Under the pieces are notes generated by a model. The model had not been told where the DNA came from and did not search any database. It saw nothing but the letters and a program-made list of their open reading frames with translations. The position numbers and the translations under genes were made by a program. DNA of 64,000 bases, taken from positions 225,338 to 289,337 of the forward strand of contig CAWHRB010000002.1 in assembly GCA_963831715.1 (NCBI GenBank), read 5' to 3'. Shown piece after piece: positions 1 to 25,176 of this stretch. The stretch comes from an uncultured Chloroflexia bacterium. Lineage in GTDB: Bacteria > Chloroflexota > Limnocylindria > Limnocylindrales > CSP1-4. Each line of letters starts with the position of its first letter. Within the stretch, counting starts at the first letter, position 1.

Positions 1-1473
1 GCGGCTCGCGGTCTTGGCCGTGGGCTTGCCGGGAGCGGATTTCTTGGTGGCCGCGGGCTTCGCGCTGGCCGCGAGTTTCGCGGCGGCCGGTTTCTTGGCG
101 CTCGTCGGCTTCGCGGCGGCGACGGGCTTAGCGGCGACCGATGGCTTCGTGGCGCCAGCTGGCTTTCTGGCGGCCGCCGACTCCTTGGCCGCGACTGCCT
201 TGGTCGGGCTCACCTTCGCGGAGGCCTGCACCGGCGACTTCGCAGCGACCTTCTTCTTGGCCGGCTTGGGCTTCACGGCCGGCTCGCGGTCGAGCAGCAC
301 CGTCACGCCGGGCAGCTCGCGGCCTTCGAGGAATTCGAGGGAGGCGCCACCGCCGGTCGAGATATGGCTCATCTTCGAGGCCAGGCCCTGGCGGGTGATG
401 GCGGCCACCGAGTCGCCGCCGCCGATCACGACCGTTGCGCCCTTCTCGGCTCGTTCGGCCAGCATCCGAGCCACGGCGTTCGTGCCGTGGGCGAACGATG
501 GGATCTCGAAGACACCGAGCGGACCGTTCCAGAACACCGTCTTGACGTCGGACAGTGCGTCGACCATCAGGTCCTGGCTCGCCTTGCCGAGATCGACGAT
601 GTGCCAGCTCGCGGGGATCTTCTCGGCCTGCAGCGTCTTGTACTCGGTACCGCGCGTGACCTCCTTGGCCACGATGACGTCGACCGGCAGCACGATGCGG
701 ACCTTGTTCTTCTCGGCCCGGGCCAGGATGCGCCGGGCATCCTCGACGCGGTCCGGCTCGGCGAGGCTCTTGCCGATCGTCTTGCCCTGCGCGAGCAGGA
801 AGGTATTGGCCATCCCGCCACCGAGCACGAGCAGATCGACCTTGGTCAGGAGGTTGTCGATGACGCCGATCTTGTCGCTCACCTTGGCGCCGCCGAGGAT
901 CGCCGCGAACGGCCGCTCGGGTGCCTCGAGGAGCTTCGAGAGCATGGTCAGCTCGCGCTCCATCAGGAGCCCGGCGTAGGCGGGCAGGACCCTGGCGATA
1001 CCGACCGTGCTGGCATGCGCGCGGTGGGCCGTCCCGAAGGCGTCGTTGACGTAGAGATCGGCGTACGACGCGAGGATCGCCGCGAACTCGGGATCGTTGG
1101 CTTCCTCCTCGGGGTGGAACCGGAGGTTCTCGAGCAGGACGATCTCGCCCGGTCGCATGCGCCTGAGGGCGTCCTCTGTACCGAGGCCCAGCGCATCACC
1201 GGTGACCGGCACGTTCCGACGCAACAGCTCCGCCAGACGCTGGCCGACCGGCCGCAGGCGGAGGCCGTCGGTGACCTTGCCGTTGGGGCGGCCGAGATGG
1301 CTGGCCAGGATGACCTTGGCCCCGGCCTGCCCAAGGGAGACGATCGTCGGGATGGCCGCCCGGATACGGGAGTCGTCCTGTACCTTGCCGTCGGCGAGCG
1401 GGACGTTGAAATCGACGCGGACGAAGACGCGTTTCCCCGCGACGTCCGCGTCGCGGATCGTGAGCTTGTCCAT
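1..1473 (-). CDS. pgk: Phosphoglycerate kinase, fused in frame to a Lys/Ala/Pro-rich C-terminal tail of at least 95 aa. Partial: the ORF runs off the window start and no stop is seen.
   Basis: Reverse-strand translation from the ATG at 1473..1471 gives MDKLTIRDADVAGKRVFVRVDFNVPL...LGRPNGKV...GGGMANTFLLAQG...STGGGASLEFLEGRELPGVTVLLDRE. It then continues without a stop as PAVKPKPAKKKVAAKSPVQASAKVSPTKAVAAKESAAARKPAGATKPSVAAKPVAAAKPTSAKKPAAAKLAASAKPAATKKSAPGKPTAKTASR to position 1. The gene lies immediately downstream of gap, as expected for a gap-pgk operon. It is missing from the ORF track because it has no in-window stop. Confidence 0.9.
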   Translation of the reverse strand, partial: MDKLTIRDADVAGKRVFVRVDFNVPLADGKVQDDSRIRAAIPTIVSLGQAGAKVILASHLGRPNGKVTDGLRLRPVGQRLAELLRRNVPVTGDALGLGTEDALRRMRPGEIVLLENLRFHPEEEANDPEFAAILASYADLYVNDAFGTAHRAHASTVGIARVLPAYAGLLMERELTMLSKLLEAPERPFAAILGGAKVSDKIGVIDNLLTKVDLLVLGGGMANTFLLAQGKTIGKSLAEPDRVEDARRILARAEKNKVRIVLPVDVIVAKEVTRGTEYKTLQAEKIPASWHIVDLGKASQDLMVDALSDVKTVFWNGPLGVFEIPSFAHGTNAVARMLAERAEKGATVVIGGGDSVAAITRQGLASKMSHISTGGGASLEFLEGRELPGVTVLLDREPAVKPKPAKKKVAAKSPVQASAKVSPTKAVAAKESAAARKPAGATKPSVAAKPVAAAKPTSAKKPAAAKLAASAKPAATKKSAPGKPTAKTASR

Positions 1474-1486
1474 GCTCAGCGCCGCG

Positions 1487-2506
1487 TCAGGCGGCGACGG
1501 GCAGGCGCGCGGCCACGAACGCGATCAGGTCGGCGACCCGGCAGCTGTACCCCCATTCGTTGTCGTACCAGGCGATGACCTTCACCATGTCGCCGCCAAG
1601 AACCATCGTCGACTCCGCGTCGATGATCGACGAGCGCGAGTCGCCTCGGAAATCGCTCGACACGAGCGGTTCGTCGGACACCCCGAGGATGCCCTCGAGA
1701 GCGCCGGTCGACGCCGCGCGGAAGGCATCGTTGAGCTCCTCGACGGTCGTCGAGCGCCGCACCGTGGCGGTGAAGTCGACGACGCTGACCGTCGGCGTGG
1801 GAACGCGCAGGCTGAACCCGTCGAACCTGCCCTTGAGATCGGGGATCACGAGCGCGAGCGCCTTCGCGGCGCCGGTCGTGGTCGGGATGATGTTCTGGCC
1901 TGCGGCTCGGGCGCGGCGCGGATCCTTGTGCGCCACGTCGAGGATCCGCTGGTCGTTCGTGTAGCTATGGATGGTGTTCATCAGCCCCTTCTCGATGCCG
2001 AGCAGGTCGTGGACGACCTTGGCGGCCGGAGCGAGGCAGTTCGTCGTGCAGCTGGCGTTGCTGATGACGTGATGCGTCGAGGGGTCGTAGTGGTCCTCGT
2101 TGACGCCGAGAACGATCGTGATGTCCTCGTTCTTGGCCGGAGCGCTGATGATCACCTTCTGGGCGCCGGCGGTGATGTGCGCCTTGGCCTTCTCGGCATC
2201 CGTGAAGATGCCGGTCGACTCGAGCACGATGTCGATCCCGAGGTCGCCCCACGGCAGTGCCGCCGGATCCCGCTCCGCCAGGATCCTGATCTCGCGGCCG
2301 TCGATGATGATCGAACTGTCGCCCGCCCGAACGTCGCCGTCATAGGCGCCGTACGTCGAGTCGTGCTTGAACAGCAGCGCGTTCATCTCGGCATCGACGA
2401 GGTCGTTCACGGCCACGACCTCGACATCCGGCGCACGCTCGAGCAGCGCCTTGAGCGACTGACGGCCGATCCGACCGAAGCCGTTGATGCCGACGCGGAC
2501 TGCCAT
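1487..2506 (-). CDS. gap: Glyceraldehyde-3-phosphate dehydrogenase (type I).
   Basis: The translation [16 protein letters not shown]...[19 protein letters not shown]...WYDNEWGYS is a classical GAPDH. An AGGAGG SD precedes the ATG at 2506. Confidence 0.97.
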
Positions 2507-2685: not shown

Positions 2686-2826
2686 TCAGCCGCCGATCCT
2701 GAAGACCTTGTTGCCGCAGATCGGGCACGTGCCCTGCAGGGCCGGCTTGCCGTTCTTCATGGTGATCCGTTGAGGGTTCTGGACCTCGACCTTTCGCTTG
2801 TCCTTGACGCAATAGGCCTCAGCCAT
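2686..2826 (-). CDS. Small zinc-ribbon protein, 46 aa, with a C-x4-D...CPICG motif.
   Basis: An internal ATG at 2826 preceded by GAGGAGGAAG gives MAEAYCVKDKRKVEVQNPQRITMKNGKPALQGTCPICGNKVFRIGG. It resembles small conserved actinobacterial DUF proteins. Confidence 0.6.
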   Translation of the reverse strand: MAEAYCVKDKRKVEVQNPQRITMKNGKPALQGTCPICGNKVFRIGG

Positions 2827-2895
2827 GTGGGCTTCCTCCTCGGTGGTTCGAGCGTCGCGGGAGCACGCGTCCCGCATCCGCTCGTCGGTAGCTCG

Positions 2896-3932: not shown

Positions 3933-6900
3933 TCAGTCCCGTCTGCGAACCCCCAGCGAGGTGGCTCGCTCGCCTCGATCGGGCCCTGCCGAGCCGGTCA
4001 GACGGGCAAGCCGCGTCGTGACGCGCTCGGCCAGGAGCCGCTTGCCTTTGCGGCGGCGGAGGACCGTCATCGCCACCGATGCCAGCCCGACCACGAGCAG
4101 CCCGGCCAGCCCGGCGCCCGCGCCCGGCACGAGTGCGCCAGGGTCGGCGAAGCCCGCGGTCCGCACGTCAGCGTGGCTCCCGAGGGTCGGGGAGGGACTC
4201 GGCTCCGGGTCTGCCGTCGCGTCGAGGCGATCGAGCGCGCTCCCGAGCGTGAGCGCGGACGGATCGTCCACGACGAGCGCGGGCTCACCGTCCACCTGCT
4301 CCTCCACACGCCCCGTGGCGTTGATCGCGTCGTCCGGTTCGACGAGACCCACCCAGTCACTCGCGGCGCCCGTGAGCACGACGCGACCGACGGCGGTGCC
4401 GTCATCGAGCATGAAGCCATCGGATCGAAGGTCGACGACGAGTCCGCCGACGCGGACGACCGACCCGAGCAGCGACGCAAGGTCGACGAGGTCGGCTTGG
4501 ACCGTATCCGACGCCCGCGCGGCGGGTCCGGTCGGCGCACCCGTTCGTGTGTTCGACACCGTTCCAGGGCTCGAGCTCGGCGCCACGCCGCGCTGTCGGA
4601 CATCGGCGGTGGAGCGGGGCAGGATCGACGGCCGCTTGTCGGAGGCGCTCGGATAGGCGGGTCGGGCGATCCCGACGATGTCGGCCACGCGACCCTCGGC
4701 GAGGGCCGTGCTGGGGATCCGCGCGCCCGGTTGGGCCACCACGACCAGTTTCGTGGCCCCGACCACGATCTCGGCACGCCACCGCTCGCCCAGCTTGCTG
4801 ACGTCGTCCACGCGCCCGGCGATCGACACGAGCCGCCAGGTGTGCGCCGTGGTGAGTGGACCGTTGACCCGCAGCGGCGCGGGCACAGCCGCGGATCCGC
4901 GGCGTTCGAGCGTCTCGGCCCGCAGGCGCGGCGCACCGTACGCCGTTCCGACGCGACCGGCGACACGGGTGCGACTGCCGACCGACGGCGCCGAGGTGTC
5001 CTTCGGGATCAGGATCTCGATGGCCCCGGTCGCATCCTGGACGACGATCCGCCGCCCTGAACTGTCGAGCAGCTTCGCGCCTGCCGTGACGACCGCGTCG
5101 ATCGCGATGTCGCGATCGGTGATCCGGAGCGCCGTGGCGATCGACACGACCGACGGACGCGGTCCGTTCGACGCGCCCGGCTGACCCGCTGACGGCGAGG
5201 GCTTCGGAGCCGCGGCGAGGAGGGTCAGGTCGTGGCGGTCGCGCAGCCACACGCGGTAGCCGTCGAGCGCGCCCTTCGCGGTGGCGCGCTGTCCCGCGAT
5301 GCCGACCATCCGATACCGCGCGCCCTTGACGAACGATGTCGGCCGGAGCCCGCTCGAGGCATCGGCCATGATCCGCACCTTCGTCCCGCTGGCTGTCTCG
5401 ATCAGGACCCGGATGTCGCCGCTGTCGACCTTGGTCGGACGTTCCACGACGACGCCGGTCAGGCGAACGACTCGACCTTCCGTCGATTCATTCGGTCCAG
5501 CCGCCGGAACATCGATCGGGGCGGGTAGCGCGGCCGTGCCCTCGAACGTGATCCCGCTCGCGGCCGGGCGGATCTCGATCTGGCCGTATGGGTCGGCGAG
5601 CTTGCCGCTCACCGAAACGACGCGTCCTCGAGCCGGCGGCGTGGCACCCGAGGGCAGCTTGACGATGATGCCGCCGCTCGTGTCGGCGATCGCGAGAAGG
5701 CCGGCGGTCCCCAGGCGGCCCACCTCGGCGGTCACGACGCCGCGCACCGAGGCGGTGCTGCCGATCGCCTGCCCACGGACGCCCGCGATCGACGGCGTGG
5801 CGGGCGTCGGCGACGGCGCGGGGGTCGGCGAGGCCGTGGGCGTGGGGAGCGGAGATCCCGTCGGGCCGGGTGTCGGGGTCGGTGTCTGACTGGGCGTCGG
5901 GGCGGCTGACGGTGTCGCGGTCGGTGGCGGCTCGACGACGAGGTCTGAAACCGCCGTCACGAACAGACGATAGCCCGCGACGCCCGTCCCGGAGCTGTCG
6001 CGCTGTCCGAGCGGCCCGACGGCGATGATCCGCGAGCCGACGTCGAGCTGGCGCCCGGCGAGTGCACCCGGCGTCACGATGACCCGTGTCGCGCCGGAGC
6101 CGTCGTCGACCGTCACGGCCGTGCCGTCGGCGAGGCTGTCCGGACCAGAGGTCACGTCGCCGGTGACCAGGAGCCGTCGACCCTCGACGGGTTCGATGGC
6201 TGCTCCGGTGCTGGAGGTGAACGGGGCCGGCAGCGGCACGGTCCCCGTCGCGACGATGTCCGCCTCGCTCGCCCGGACCGTACGCTGCGCGAACCGGTCA
6301 TCGACCGAGCCATGCACGACCACGGACGTGCCGGCGACGAGCGAAGCCACGACCGCCGCGTCGAGATAGATGGCAACGCCGCCGCTGTCGTCCTGCACGA
6401 ACGCACCGTGTCCGGCTTCGAGCGCACCGAGATCCGTCGTGAGCACGCCGGCGATCGTCACCACGGCGCCGTCGGGTTGCCCGCGAGCGTCCGCGATCGA
6501 GACCGTCGATGGCGTGGGTTCCGGTGTAGGCGTCGGCGGGGGCGTCGGCGCGACCGTCGGGCTTGCGGTCGGTTCCGTCGTTGGTGATGGAGTGGACTCG
6601 GGCGATCCCGTCGGGGTCGATGTCGGCTCGGGTGTGGGCGTGACGGTCGGCTCGGCCGACGCCGTCGCCGTTGGACTCGGCGTGACGCCCGGCGACGGCA
6701 CGAGCGGAGAGCCGAGGTTCTGCGGACCTGGTGATGCGCTGAGGAACCAGTCGATCGCGTTGTCGTTGGTGTCCGATGCGTTCCCCGCCGGACCGCCCGG
6801 CCGCCGTTCGAGGCTCGACGACGCCGGCGGCGCAGGCGCGACCGTTCCCTCGACGAAGGCATTCGTCGCGTCGCCCCAGCCCACCGAGTCCACGACCATG

Positions 6901-7331
6901 CCACCGACGACGCGCAGGGCGACTGCGCCGCCGGTCGCCGCGAAGCCGCCGGTGTACGCCCCATCGCCGAGCCCCACGAAGGAGCCCGCGCCGTTGACGA
7001 TGAGGATCCGCTGGCCCGAGGCGAGGATCGTCGACGTCGTCCATGTGGCCTTGCGGGTGACCGTCGATCCGCTCGATGTCGAATACACGAGCTCGAGACC
7101 GACCAGGTCGACAGGTCCCGCACCCTGGTTCGCGATCTCGACGAACTCGTCCGACGCGCTCGATCCCCCGGTCTGCACTTCCGACACGACGATGGTCGAC
7201 GGCGGCCACGGGACGCTGGCGGCGAGTGCGACCGTCGCGCCCATGGGGATGGCGGCCGCCGGCAGGCTCGACAGGCACAGGGCGACGACGAGAAGGGGCG
7301 CGACAGTCGCCGCGCGCCGGACGCGTTGCAT
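3933..7331 (-). CDS. Very large secreted, cell-surface protein: N-terminal lamin-tail domain, Pro/Thr-rich linkers, repeated OB-fold-like modules, and a C-terminal transmembrane anchor.
   Basis: Signal peptide MQRVRRAATVAPLLVVALCLSSLPAAA. LTD motif VVSEVQTGGSSASDEFVEIANQGAGPVDLVGLELVY. PT-rich linkers (PTPTPEPTSTPTGSPESTPSPTTEPT...). Four repeats of the form SIADARGQPDGAVVTIAGVLTT...GAFVQDDSGGVAIYL, which resemble the OB-fold modules of ExeM/NucH proteins. C-terminal hydrophobic segment LAGLLVVGLASVAMTVLRRRKGKR. No nuclease catalytic domain was recognised. Confidence 0.8.
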   Translation of the reverse strand: MQRVRRAATVAPLLVVALCLSSLPAAAIPMGATVALAASVPWPPSTIVVSEVQTGGSSASDEFVEIANQGAGPVDLVGLELVYSTSSGSTVTRKATWTTSTILASGQRILIVNGAGSFVGLGDGAYTGGFAATGGAVALRVVGGMVVDSVGWGDATNAFVEGTVAPAPPASSSLERRPGGPAGNASDTNDNAIDWFLSASPGPQNLGSPLVPSPGVTPSPTATASAEPTVTPTPEPTSTPTGSPESTPSPTTEPTASPTVAPTPPPTPTPEPTPSTVSIADARGQPDGAVVTIAGVLTTDLGALEAGHGAFVQDDSGGVAIYLDAAVVASLVAGTSVVVHGSVDDRFAQRTVRASEADIVATGTVPLPAPFTSSTGAAIEPVEGRRLLVTGDVTSGPDSLADGTAVTVDDGSGATRVIVTPGALAGRQLDVGSRIIAVGPLGQRDSSGTGVAGYRLFVTAVSDLVVEPPPTATPSAAPTPSQTPTPTPGPTGSPLPTPTASPTPAPSPTPATPSIAGVRGQAIGSTASVRGVVTAEVGRLGTAGLLAIADTSGGIIVKLPSGATPPARGRVVSVSGKLADPYGQIEIRPAASGITFEGTAALPAPIDVPAAGPNESTEGRVVRLTGVVVERPTKVDSGDIRVLIETASGTKVRIMADASSGLRPTSFVKGARYRMVGIAGQRATAKGALDGYRVWLRDRHDLTLLAAAPKPSPSAGQPGASNGPRPSVVSIATALRITDRDIAIDAVVTAGAKLLDSSGRRIVVQDATGAIEILIPKDTSAPSVGSRTRVAGRVGTAYGAPRLRAETLERRGSAAVPAPLRVNGPLTTAHTWRLVSIAGRVDDVSKLGERWRAEIVVGATKLVVVAQPGARIPSTALAEGRVADIVGIARPAYPSASDKRPSILPRSTADVRQRGVAPSSSPGTVSNTRTGAPTGPAARASDTVQADLVDLASLLGSVVRVGGLVVDLRSDGFMLDDGTAVGRVVLTGAASDWVGLVEPDDAINATGRVEEQVDGEPALVVDDPSALTLGSALDRLDATADPEPSPSPTLGSHADVRTAGFADPGALVPGAGAGLAGLLVVGLASVAMTVLRRRKGKRLLAERVTTRLARLTGSAGPDRGERATSLGVRRRD

Positions 7332-21828: not shown

Positions 21829-21904
21829 GGGGATGTAGCTCAGCTGGGAGAGCACCGCGTTCGCATCGCGGGGGTCAGGGGTTCGAGTCCCCTCATCTCC
21901 ACCA
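21829..21904 (+). tRNA. tRNA-Ala (anticodon CGC).
   Basis: Cloverleaf GGGGATG-TA-GCTC...GAGC-A-CCGCG-TTCGCAT-CGCGG-GGGTC-AGGGG-TTCGAGT-CCCCT-CATCTCC-ACCA, with the G3:U70 alanine identity pair. TGCTACACT (-10) lies 10 nt upstream. Confidence 0.93.
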
Positions 21905-25100: not shown

Positions 25101-25176
25101 GGGGCTATAGCTCAGCTGGAAGAGCACCTGCATGGCATGCAGGGGGTCCGGGGTTCGAGTCCCCGTAGCTCCACCA
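25101..25176 (+). tRNA. tRNA-Ala (anticodon GGC).
   Basis: GGGGCTA...CCTGC-ATGGCAT-GCAGG...TAGCTCC-ACCA with G3:U70. An extended -10 TGCTACAAT lies 10 nt upstream. A GC hairpin follows at about 25196..25222. Confidence 0.93.

Follow-up and report, generated by a model that had tools for sequence, protein, structure and literature searches.

A gene for phosphoglycerate kinase (PGK) that carries a long Lys/Ala/Pro-rich (K/A/P-rich) C-terminal tail was found at the left edge of a 64,000-nucleotide stretch of DNA from an uncultured Chloroflexia bacterium of the order Limnocylindrales (GenBank assembly GCA_963831715.1, contig CAWHRB010000002.1, positions 225,338 to 289,337), hereafter called the window. 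The enzyme itself is complete, and the tail is almost certainly real and translated. Tails of this kind characterise Limnocylindrales-type Chloroflexota as a lineage and do not set this genome apart. The explanation that seems to fit best by analogy with known proteins, and to which a cautious preference is given, is that the tail would serve as a disordered, polycationic tether to polyanions of the cell. The two parts of the gene are as follows; relatives are referred to throughout by L-numbers (loci or contigs) and P-numbers (database proteins).

Window 286..1473, minus strand: pgk catalytic core, codons 1-396 (MDKLTIRD...LPGVTVLLDR), recognized by Pfam PF00162, alignment with 1php and motif residues.
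Window 1..285, minus strand: C-terminal tail rich in Lys, Ala and Pro (codons 397-491), which the window edge truncates about two codons (Arg and stop) before its probable end; recognized by composition, in-frame GC content at third codon positions (GC3) and alignment with L082.

On the minus strand, 491 codons can be read without a stop from the ATG at window position 1473 down to base 1 (translation of 1-1473), and the gene was missing from lists of open reading frames (ORFs) because this frame runs off the end of the window, as the initial annotation of this DNA had supposed. Pfam family PF00162 (PGK) covers residues 6-385, which correspond to profile positions 1-379 of 379, with 513 bits (E 5e-154) against a gathering cutoff of 27 bits. 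Residues 1-393 of the PGK from Geobacillus, whose structure has been solved (1php, 394 amino acids), align with residues 1-395 of the query (E 2e-140), and the canonical end of the enzyme, ...LPGVTVLLDR, falls at residue 396 (window 286). The motifs SHLGRP, NLRF, AHRAHAS, GGAKVSDK, WNGP, GVFE and GGGDS are all present in the core, and R36, R38, H59, R62, R118, R151, K197, N316, E323 and D354 are invariant across 62 relatives. These motifs and residues are presumably catalytic and linked to substrate and nucleotide, and the core looks catalytically competent. It has a net charge of +1, an isoelectric point (pI) of 7.9, 20 Lys and 30 Arg residues, and a GC3 of 0.904. The N-terminus, MDKLTIRD, lacks a signal peptide and aligns from residue 1 with cytosolic PGKs. 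Among solved structures, a PGK chain of 511 residues (PDB 9io5, chain O) has about 115 residues beyond its PGK match (chain residues 4-396).

Past residue 396 the same frame continues into the tail, residues 397-491, which begins EPAVKPKPAKKK and ends ...KTASR at window base 1; as translated from window 1-285 it reads EPAVKPKPAKKKVAAKSPVQ...GKPTAKTASR over 95 codons. The tail is composed of K21 A31 P13 R2 D0 E2 (22% Lys, 33% Ala and 14% Pro, with Asp and Glu together at 2%), with a net charge of +21 and a pI of 11.2, and its preference for Lys over Arg (K21/R2) contrasts with the core (K20/R30). The translation, the composition and the full PF00162 match together bear out the central claim of the initial annotation, namely that an intact PGK carries an in-frame, Lys/Ala/Pro-rich tail resembling those of histone H1 and Hlp. 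Eight KPxx units are present, two of them exact KPAA, along with one SPTK, and in one run of 71 residues the basic residues lie 3-6 positions apart (with a relaxed spacer alphabet of A, T, N, P, S, V, G, L, Q and E). No Pfam family matched the tail at E values up to 1, and no solved homologue of it was found. An AlphaFold2 model built on a shallow alignment of 62 close relatives was poor overall (mean predicted local distance difference test score, pLDDT, of 58.8) and depicted the tail as coil, with pLDDT of 40-50. In any frame of the 64-kb window, the PGK tail is the only K/A/P-rich segment; neither GAPDH nor enolase has a tail.

The tail is judged to be coding because of its in-frame GC3, its excess of Lys codons and the recurrence of the same architecture in relatives, and not because of the open frame alone. 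The frame by itself is not statistically significant, since 95 open codons do not exceed chance at 70% guanine-plus-cytosine (GC) content (P = 0.15 with the base composition of the window, 0.31 when the tail DNA is shuffled), and in this respect the data would permit an artefact, whether from a frameshift in sequencing, loss of a stop, collapse of a repeat or a wrongly joined fusion with the downstream gene. The content of the frame argues otherwise. Its 21 Lys codons (18 AAG and 3 AAA) compare with 2.6 ± 1.4 in shuffles, where the maximum in 20,000 was 9, and GC3 is 0.874 in the PGK frame versus 0.60 and 0.66 in the remaining two frames, which read as Arg/Pro/Ser-rich strings; this codon-position signal is that of coding DNA. 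Analysis of the tail DNA with TRF detected only weak two-copy repeats of 15/18 nucleotides (nt) and no strong tandem array or collapsed repeat, and a check for a frameshift at about positions 290-300 found none, which disposes of both of the technical doubts that the initial annotation had raised. The ...LPGVxVLLDR(P/E)... junction is continuous in more than 100 independent short- and long-read assemblies, and the same in-frame tail recurs in more than 100 independent assemblies from JGI, ENA, NCBI and Logan.

Comparison with related PGKs was used to place the tail in its lineage. The initial annotation had regarded such a tail as unusual; a real tail was confirmed, and it proved to be typical of the lineage rather than a novelty of one genome. 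The best 120 database matches to the PGK are 78-94% identical and 430-668 residues long, and in 119 of them a C-terminal extension, nearly always K/A/P-rich, follows ...LPGxxVLLDRP; one close match is titled 'MAG: phosphoglycerate kinase [Candidatus Limnocylindrales bacterium]'. Tails were pooled from 115 matches and the window (n = 116), leaving out four low-Lys tails of which at least three are apparent frameshifts. Their lengths range from 34 to 211 residues (median about 86), and their pooled composition is 33% Ala, 20% Lys, 16% Pro, 12% Thr, 6% Ser and 4% Arg, with acidic residues at about 2% and F, W, Y, C, M, H, I, L, N and Q together at 2.2%. Net charge per tail residue is 0.22 irrespective of tail length. 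The commonest 4-mer is KPAA, and the gaps between basic residues have a mode of 4 and a coefficient of variation of 0.476, versus 0.846 ± 0.015 in shuffles.

An exact 54-mer that spans the junction of core and tail had no match in the GTDB species genomes, and relatives were compared in place of the source genome. Among GTDB species genomes, the tail is present in 13 of 14 Limnocylindrales-type PGK loci, five of them named Candidatus Limnocylindrales and nine labelled as metagenome-assembled genomes (MAGs) of 'uncultured Chloroflexia' (72-94% identity). Clean tails of 26-196 extra residues were seen at ten of the 14 loci. At three others, all from long-read MAGs, a K/A/P tail begins and the frame then changes, which is likely the result of indel errors. 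The last, L011 (75% identity), has just 7 extra residues and no tail. All 66 other PGK loci retrieved, from Bacillota, Anaerolineae, Dehalococcoidia and Ktedonobacterales (52-59% identity to the window PGK), lack a tail and end 6-9 residues past LPGx, with one ending at 20. In the frameshifted copies P0045, P0110 and L072 the tail turns Arg/Pro/Ser-rich, and this shows the Lys frame to be the selected one. Besides that of L072, the tail of L009 switches frame; in L082 the eno and lepA genes are split. A more distant cluster of Limnocylindria-like PGKs (P0121, P0271 and P0272; 623-635 residues, 70% identity) bears tails of 227-239 residues with net charges of +58 to +62, in which mixed Arg and Lys residues in ARKAATAKKAATARK... 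repeats come after a weakly charged Pro/Ala-rich linker.

The end of the tail was located with contig L082, which is 92.9% identical in DNA to the window over 2,909 nt, tail included. The final bases of the window, ...GCGAGCCGC, are aligned, and L082 continues CGG TGA CGC TGA TCG AC, which encodes Arg and then a stop. The window very probably lacks just two codons of pgk (Arg and stop), giving a full PGK of about 492 residues with a tail of about 96. The initial annotation was right that the tail runs past base 1, but by this alignment it does so for only about two codons. In L082 the pgk stop overlaps the GTG that opens the enolase gene (VTLIDAVDAREILDSRGNPT). It is eno, and not tpiA as had been expected, that follows pgk, and the suggestion of a fusion with the downstream gene fails, insofar as the tail stop of relatives overlaps a separate GTG or ATG start of eno.

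This overlap takes the form (A/G)TGA in nine of 11 clean tailed loci; the remaining two have pgk and eno separated by 14 nt that include a GGAG motif. Given the stop-start overlap, ribosomes must read through the tail. The tail-less L011 retains the same ATGA overlap of pgk and eno; the tail was thus inserted behind the C-terminus of PGK and ahead of a translational-coupling junction that is older. Relatives keep the genes in the order PNP_UDP_1 - DUF5679 - gap - pgk - eno - (hypothetical) - rpsT - lepA, and the DUF5679-gap-pgk-eno arrangement is common to L001, L082 and L083. What speaks for an artefact, apart from the frameshifted tails of some long-read MAG relatives, is that one locus (L010 3001-5830, plus strand, MAG MFD04935.bin.2.120) contains a continuous PGK-tail-enolase ORF, in which the last approximately 25 tail codons are shifted into the eno frame. 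This single ORF was rejected as genuine and judged a probable long-read indel error; it is unique, and its last 25 or so codons are out of the Lys frame. With the separate eno start in nine of 11 clean loci, the coding signal, the many independent assemblies and the lack of a strong tandem repeat, an artefact is largely refuted and would be extremely surprising.

The tail evolves rapidly in sequence. Pairs of relatives with cores 93-99% identical in amino acids share only 38-76% identity over those stretches of tail that can be aligned, and in-frame indels are many. Tail length shows no correlation with the GC content of the locus, which is 0.67-0.71 throughout. Functional disordered regions typically show such a pattern, in which the sequence turns over fast while composition, charge density and lysine spacing stay fixed, and selection acts on the physical properties of the tail. 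In the proposed mechanism, the tail lengthens and shortens through in-frame slippage, and what selection retains is its composition, charge density and lysine spacing, not its exact sequence.

The same turnover could be read as near-neutral expansion of low complexity, in which slippage in GC-rich DNA inflated a linker between the PGK C-terminus and the eno start. The tail would then be translated and tolerated as a harmless appendage or a solubility-enhancing 'entropic bristle' with no specific partner. Tails of close relatives range in length from 26 to more than 200 residues and have low amino acid identity, L011 manages without a tail, the tail DNA holds weak short repeats, and the many indels in the alignment with L082 are a sign of slippage. 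Against near-neutral expansion, mutation pressure at 70% GC would enrich Arg, Gly, Ala and Pro, whereas the tails hold about 20% Lys and 4% Arg, with almost no acidic residues, a constant charge density and non-random lysine spacing over 116 sequences. Contrary to the bias of the tail, the mean content of open frames with 250 codons or more in the window is 1.0% Lys and 14.7% Arg.

A further argument came from a profile-free search over 1.84 billion cluster representatives for other long PGKs. Most of those found are PGK-TIM fusions or tandem PGKs. Two proteins, P0162 (504 residues) and P0246 (556 residues), have cores 42-45% identical to the window PGK, lie on contigs of 30-35% GC and carry Lys/Thr/Ser-rich tails with net charges of +27 and +29, respectively. 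The genes and proteins of this low-GC group are:

L084 6001-7671 and L086 4532-6046: loci of low-GC tailed PGKs, with Lys/Thr/Ser-rich tails.
P0246, P0162, P0273-P0283, P0290, P0293, P0314, P0318-P0323, P0329, P0350, P0357 and P0371: low-GC tailed PGK proteins.

The gene for P0246 stands among genes for a SpoVT-like protein, a Polysacc_synt-family protein (the family to which SpoVB belongs), dus, pgk, gpmI, tpiA, secG and rnr. Its host looks Clostridia-like, the nearest named relative being a 'Clostridia bacterium' MAG. At L084 the pgk stop overlaps the next glycolytic gene, and the downstream gene in the low-GC group is gpmI or tpiA. Of the 118 relatives of P0246, about 26 bear Lys-rich tails that span 31-170 residues, have net charges of +7 to +33 and fall into several unrelated sequence types; 80 have none. 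The tails of P0329 and P0350 open with Cys-rich clusters (CEKCADKKCC and GCCCCECCEKK, respectively).

These low-GC proteins are like the Limnocylindrales ones in that a complete PGK is followed by an acid-poor, Lys-rich tail. They differ in that the tail is rich in K/T/S and not K/A/P, the cores are only 42-45% identical, and most close relatives are tail-less, which is the reason for regarding the low-GC tails as of independent origin. Polycationic tails were thus added to PGK more than once, with residues favoured by the GC content of the genome (K/A/P at 70%, K/T/S at 30-35%). The renewed appearance of a Lys-rich tail in Clostridia-like PGKs is, like the compositional bias, a feature that drift does not predict, and near-neutral expansion is considered unlikely.

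The preferred explanation, a polyanion tether, is as follows. A translated tail of about 96 residues and about +21 charge, which would be intrinsically disordered and has KPAA-like spacing of its lysines, prolongs a normal PGK. This tail would act as a sequence-independent electrostatic tether and would keep or enrich PGK at polyanions of the cell; of these, nucleic acid (in the nucleoid, RNA or ribosomes) would be the likeliest partner and polyphosphate (polyP) the notable alternative. It is favoured because the tail resembles domains of AlgP/PhaF, TopA/HU and histone H1 in composition and spacing; from these likenesses we infer both polyanion binding and the identity of the partner. What the sequences themselves show is a real, coding tail that the lineage conserves, that is selected for its composition and that has a convergent counterpart. 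The moonlighting PGK at the nucleoid or surface that the initial annotation had suggested stays a putative one.

A second protein of the same gene neighbourhood also carries such a tail. About 2 kb downstream of pgk, to the left of window base 1, relatives have rpsT, which encodes ribosomal protein S20. This protein is usually about 90 residues long, and in these relatives it measures 180-250 residues with a K/A/T/P-rich C-terminal extension of about 100 residues.

L001 9621-10274, minus strand: tailed rpsT (S20); also in L002, L004, L008-L014, L072 and L082.

The S20 extension is found in every Limnocylindrales-type locus that reaches rpsT, including L011 with its tail-less PGK. K/A/P tails are not proteome-wide: only PGK has one in the 64-kb window, and only PGK and S20 have them in the syntenic loci. 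The lineage thus uses K/A-rich tails on at least one RNA-binding protein, S20.

If polyP were the partner, the tail could target PGK specifically to polyP granules in the manner of the AlgP KPAA domain, placing an enzyme that generates ATP and uses 1,3-bisphosphoglycerate beside polyP metabolism. No 4-mer is commoner in the tails than KPAA. Granule proteomics picked out AlgP owing to its positive charge, and the organisation of polyP granules depends on its C-terminal KPAA domain (PMC9239181). An activity named 1,3-diphosphoglycerate:polyphosphate phosphotransferase is listed among polyP enzymes (PMC3163519). This proposal argues by analogy alone, and KPAA-type regions also bind DNA and RNA (PMC9239181, PMC12818456). 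No ppk or ppx gene is linked to pgk in the window or in the syntenic loci, and the adjoining S20 bears a similar tail that is plausibly rRNA-binding. Specific targeting to granules is accordingly held to be quite improbable. A bolder variant, for which the odds seem slight indeed, is that the repeated gains of PGK tails serve docking on polyP granules or on polyP/nucleoid condensates and couple substrate-level phosphorylation to polyP metabolism. In its extreme version, the tailed PGK would be the missing 1,3-bisphosphoglycerate:polyphosphate phosphotransferase, an activity to which, to our knowledge, no gene has ever been assigned.

The polyanion could also lie outside the cell, with the tailed PGK as a surface-exposed or secreted moonlighting adhesin, comparable to mycobacterial HBHA/Hlp and to streptococcal surface PGK, that binds anionic wall polymers or external polysaccharides. 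The composition of the PGK tail presumably resembles that of heparin-binding tails. Surface PGKs are known, and the streptococcal enzyme binds plasminogen and actin via lysine-rich regions (reviewed in PMC7729029). This role is very hard to reconcile with an N-terminus that aligns with cytosolic PGKs from residue 1 without a signal peptide, with the housekeeping nature of a gap-pgk-eno operon, and with hosts that are free-living soil or freshwater bacteria; it is regarded as most improbable.

Several points weigh against a tether to cellular polyanions. We know of no need of PGK for nucleic acid or polyP. The tail fits no defined repeat family strictly, and it appears dispensable, insofar as its length varies about sevenfold and L011 lacks it. 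Polyanion binding, localisation and expression of the tail at the protein level are predictions from sequence. The low pLDDT of the tail is weak evidence of disorder and adds little, the whole AlphaFold model being poor. The semi-conserved tail endings …SGRSR, …ARTE[KT]RA and …TSRK coincide with Shine-Dalgarno-like GGAG sequences for eno, and these conserved endings may be kept as RNA, as the eno ribosome-binding site, and not for a function of the protein.

The remaining features of the window near pgk, and two further away, are as follows.

Window 1474..1486, minus strand: gap-pgk intergenic spacer of 13 nt, cgcggcgctgagc, before the pgk ATG, read directly from the sequence.
Window 1487..2506, minus strand: gap (GAPDH), 339 residues, of normal length and without a tail, with Pfam Gp_dh_N and Gp_dh_C; upstream operon partner of pgk.
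Window 2686-2877, minus strand: DUF5679 protein of 63 residues with CxxC...CxxC motifs, directly upstream of gap, in a position conserved in L001, L082 and L083.
Window 3933-7331, minus strand: protein of 1,132 residues with an N-terminal signal-like segment, a lamin-tail domain and several OB-fold domains (BOF and tRNA_anti-codon type).
Window 21829-21904 and 25101-25176, both plus strand: two tRNA-Ala genes with anticodons CGC and GGC, about 3.2 kb apart.

In the 1,132-residue protein the domains are joined by Pro/Thr/Ser-rich linkers, and a C-terminal hydrophobic anchor is followed by RRRKGKR; it is syntenic upstream of the gap-pgk cluster in relatives. The two tRNA-Ala genes are the sole Rfam matches in the window.

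The closest counterparts of the tail are on proteins other than glycolytic enzymes. The AlgP KPAA domain both binds DNA and localises to polyP granules (PMC9239181), and the KPAA disordered region of PhaF binds RNA (PMC12818456). The tail shares with these Pseudomonas regions a dominance of Lys, Ala and Pro, a scarcity of acidic residues, predicted disorder, a lysine about every four residues and a hypervariable number of repeats. AlgP, however, has 25 perfect tandem KPAA units on a small, helical, non-enzymatic protein, whereas no long tandem array of mostly perfect KPAA was found in the window tail, which has two exact units among eight KPxx and sits on a glycolytic enzyme. The resemblance of the PGK tails to AlgP and PhaF is one of composition and spacing. 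A protein search with the window tail by itself, in which low-complexity sequence is filtered out, gave no scored match.

Lysine repeats of Streptomyces TopA bind DNA, and hundreds of Streptomyces proteins have such repeats, for the most part without an annotation as DNA-binding (PMC5714199). The actinobacterial repeats (Streptomyces TopA, HupS, FtsK and HrdB; mycobacterial HupB/Hlp/MDP1) are likewise C-terminal, Lys/Ala-rich appendages in high-GC Terrabacteria, where they stabilise DNA binding, and basic residues are regularly spaced in both them and the PGK tail. The differences are that the spacers of the PGK tail include Pro, Ser and Val, that the carrier is PGK and not a DNA enzyme or HU fold, and that the phylum is Chloroflexota. 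A strict regular expression for at least three consecutive K1-2(A/T/N)3-5 units (Szafran et al. 2017, PMC5714199) finds none in the window tail. With the H1-like/Hlp (MDP1) class the tail shares a K/A/P-rich, acid-poor, low-complexity C-terminal region; the N-terminal DNA-binding fold that bears the tail in that class (HU or winged helix) is absent, PGK being the sole domain. The lysine density of H1 is about twice that of the PGK tail. The C-terminal domain of H1 is also K/A/P-rich, disordered and polycationic, and H1 binds polyanions and can drive condensation (PMC9239181; PMC11062459), but it has S/TPxK motifs where the PGK tail has one SPTK, and PGK lacks the winged-helix domain.

Extensions of PGK itself have been described, including the Thermotoga PGK-TIM fusion and the kinetoplastid glycosomal PGKC, with 20 residues in T. 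brucei and 63 in Leishmania (PMC7729029). The Leishmania extension is similar in being extra C-terminal sequence, part of it positively charged, with a supposed role in localisation or association (PMC7729029). Those extensions consist of a second folded enzyme or a short organelle-targeting peptide, in contrast to a long, low-complexity polycation without a Pfam domain. A second folded or catalytic domain, as in bifunctional PGK-TIM, was not found here, the tail having no Pfam match and eno a separate start. A 2020 review of PGK architectures lists PGK-TIM fusions, PGKs with PAS, HTH or cNMP domains, and kinetoplastid extensions (PMC7729029), and its list holds no bacterial K/A/P tail; a 2026 paper on Limnocylindria genomics mentions neither PGK nor lysine-rich tails. 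Tailed sequences are already public, annotated plainly as 'phosphoglycerate kinase'. Both the enzyme and this type of polycationic disordered region are known; their combination, and its distribution over lineages, are undescribed in the literature searched.

Gene callers and reviewers may take tails of this kind for frameshifts or fusions. Bacterial glycolytic enzymes are usually treated as freely diffusing. In an entire order of uncultured Chloroflexota, abundant in soil and fresh water, a central ATP-forming enzyme bears a conserved tail of the polyanion-binding type, and this suggests that the cell positions PGK deliberately, at the nucleoid, RNA or ribosomes, polyP granules or condensates. 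It offers a simple natural example for studying how a disordered charged tail may localise an enzyme.

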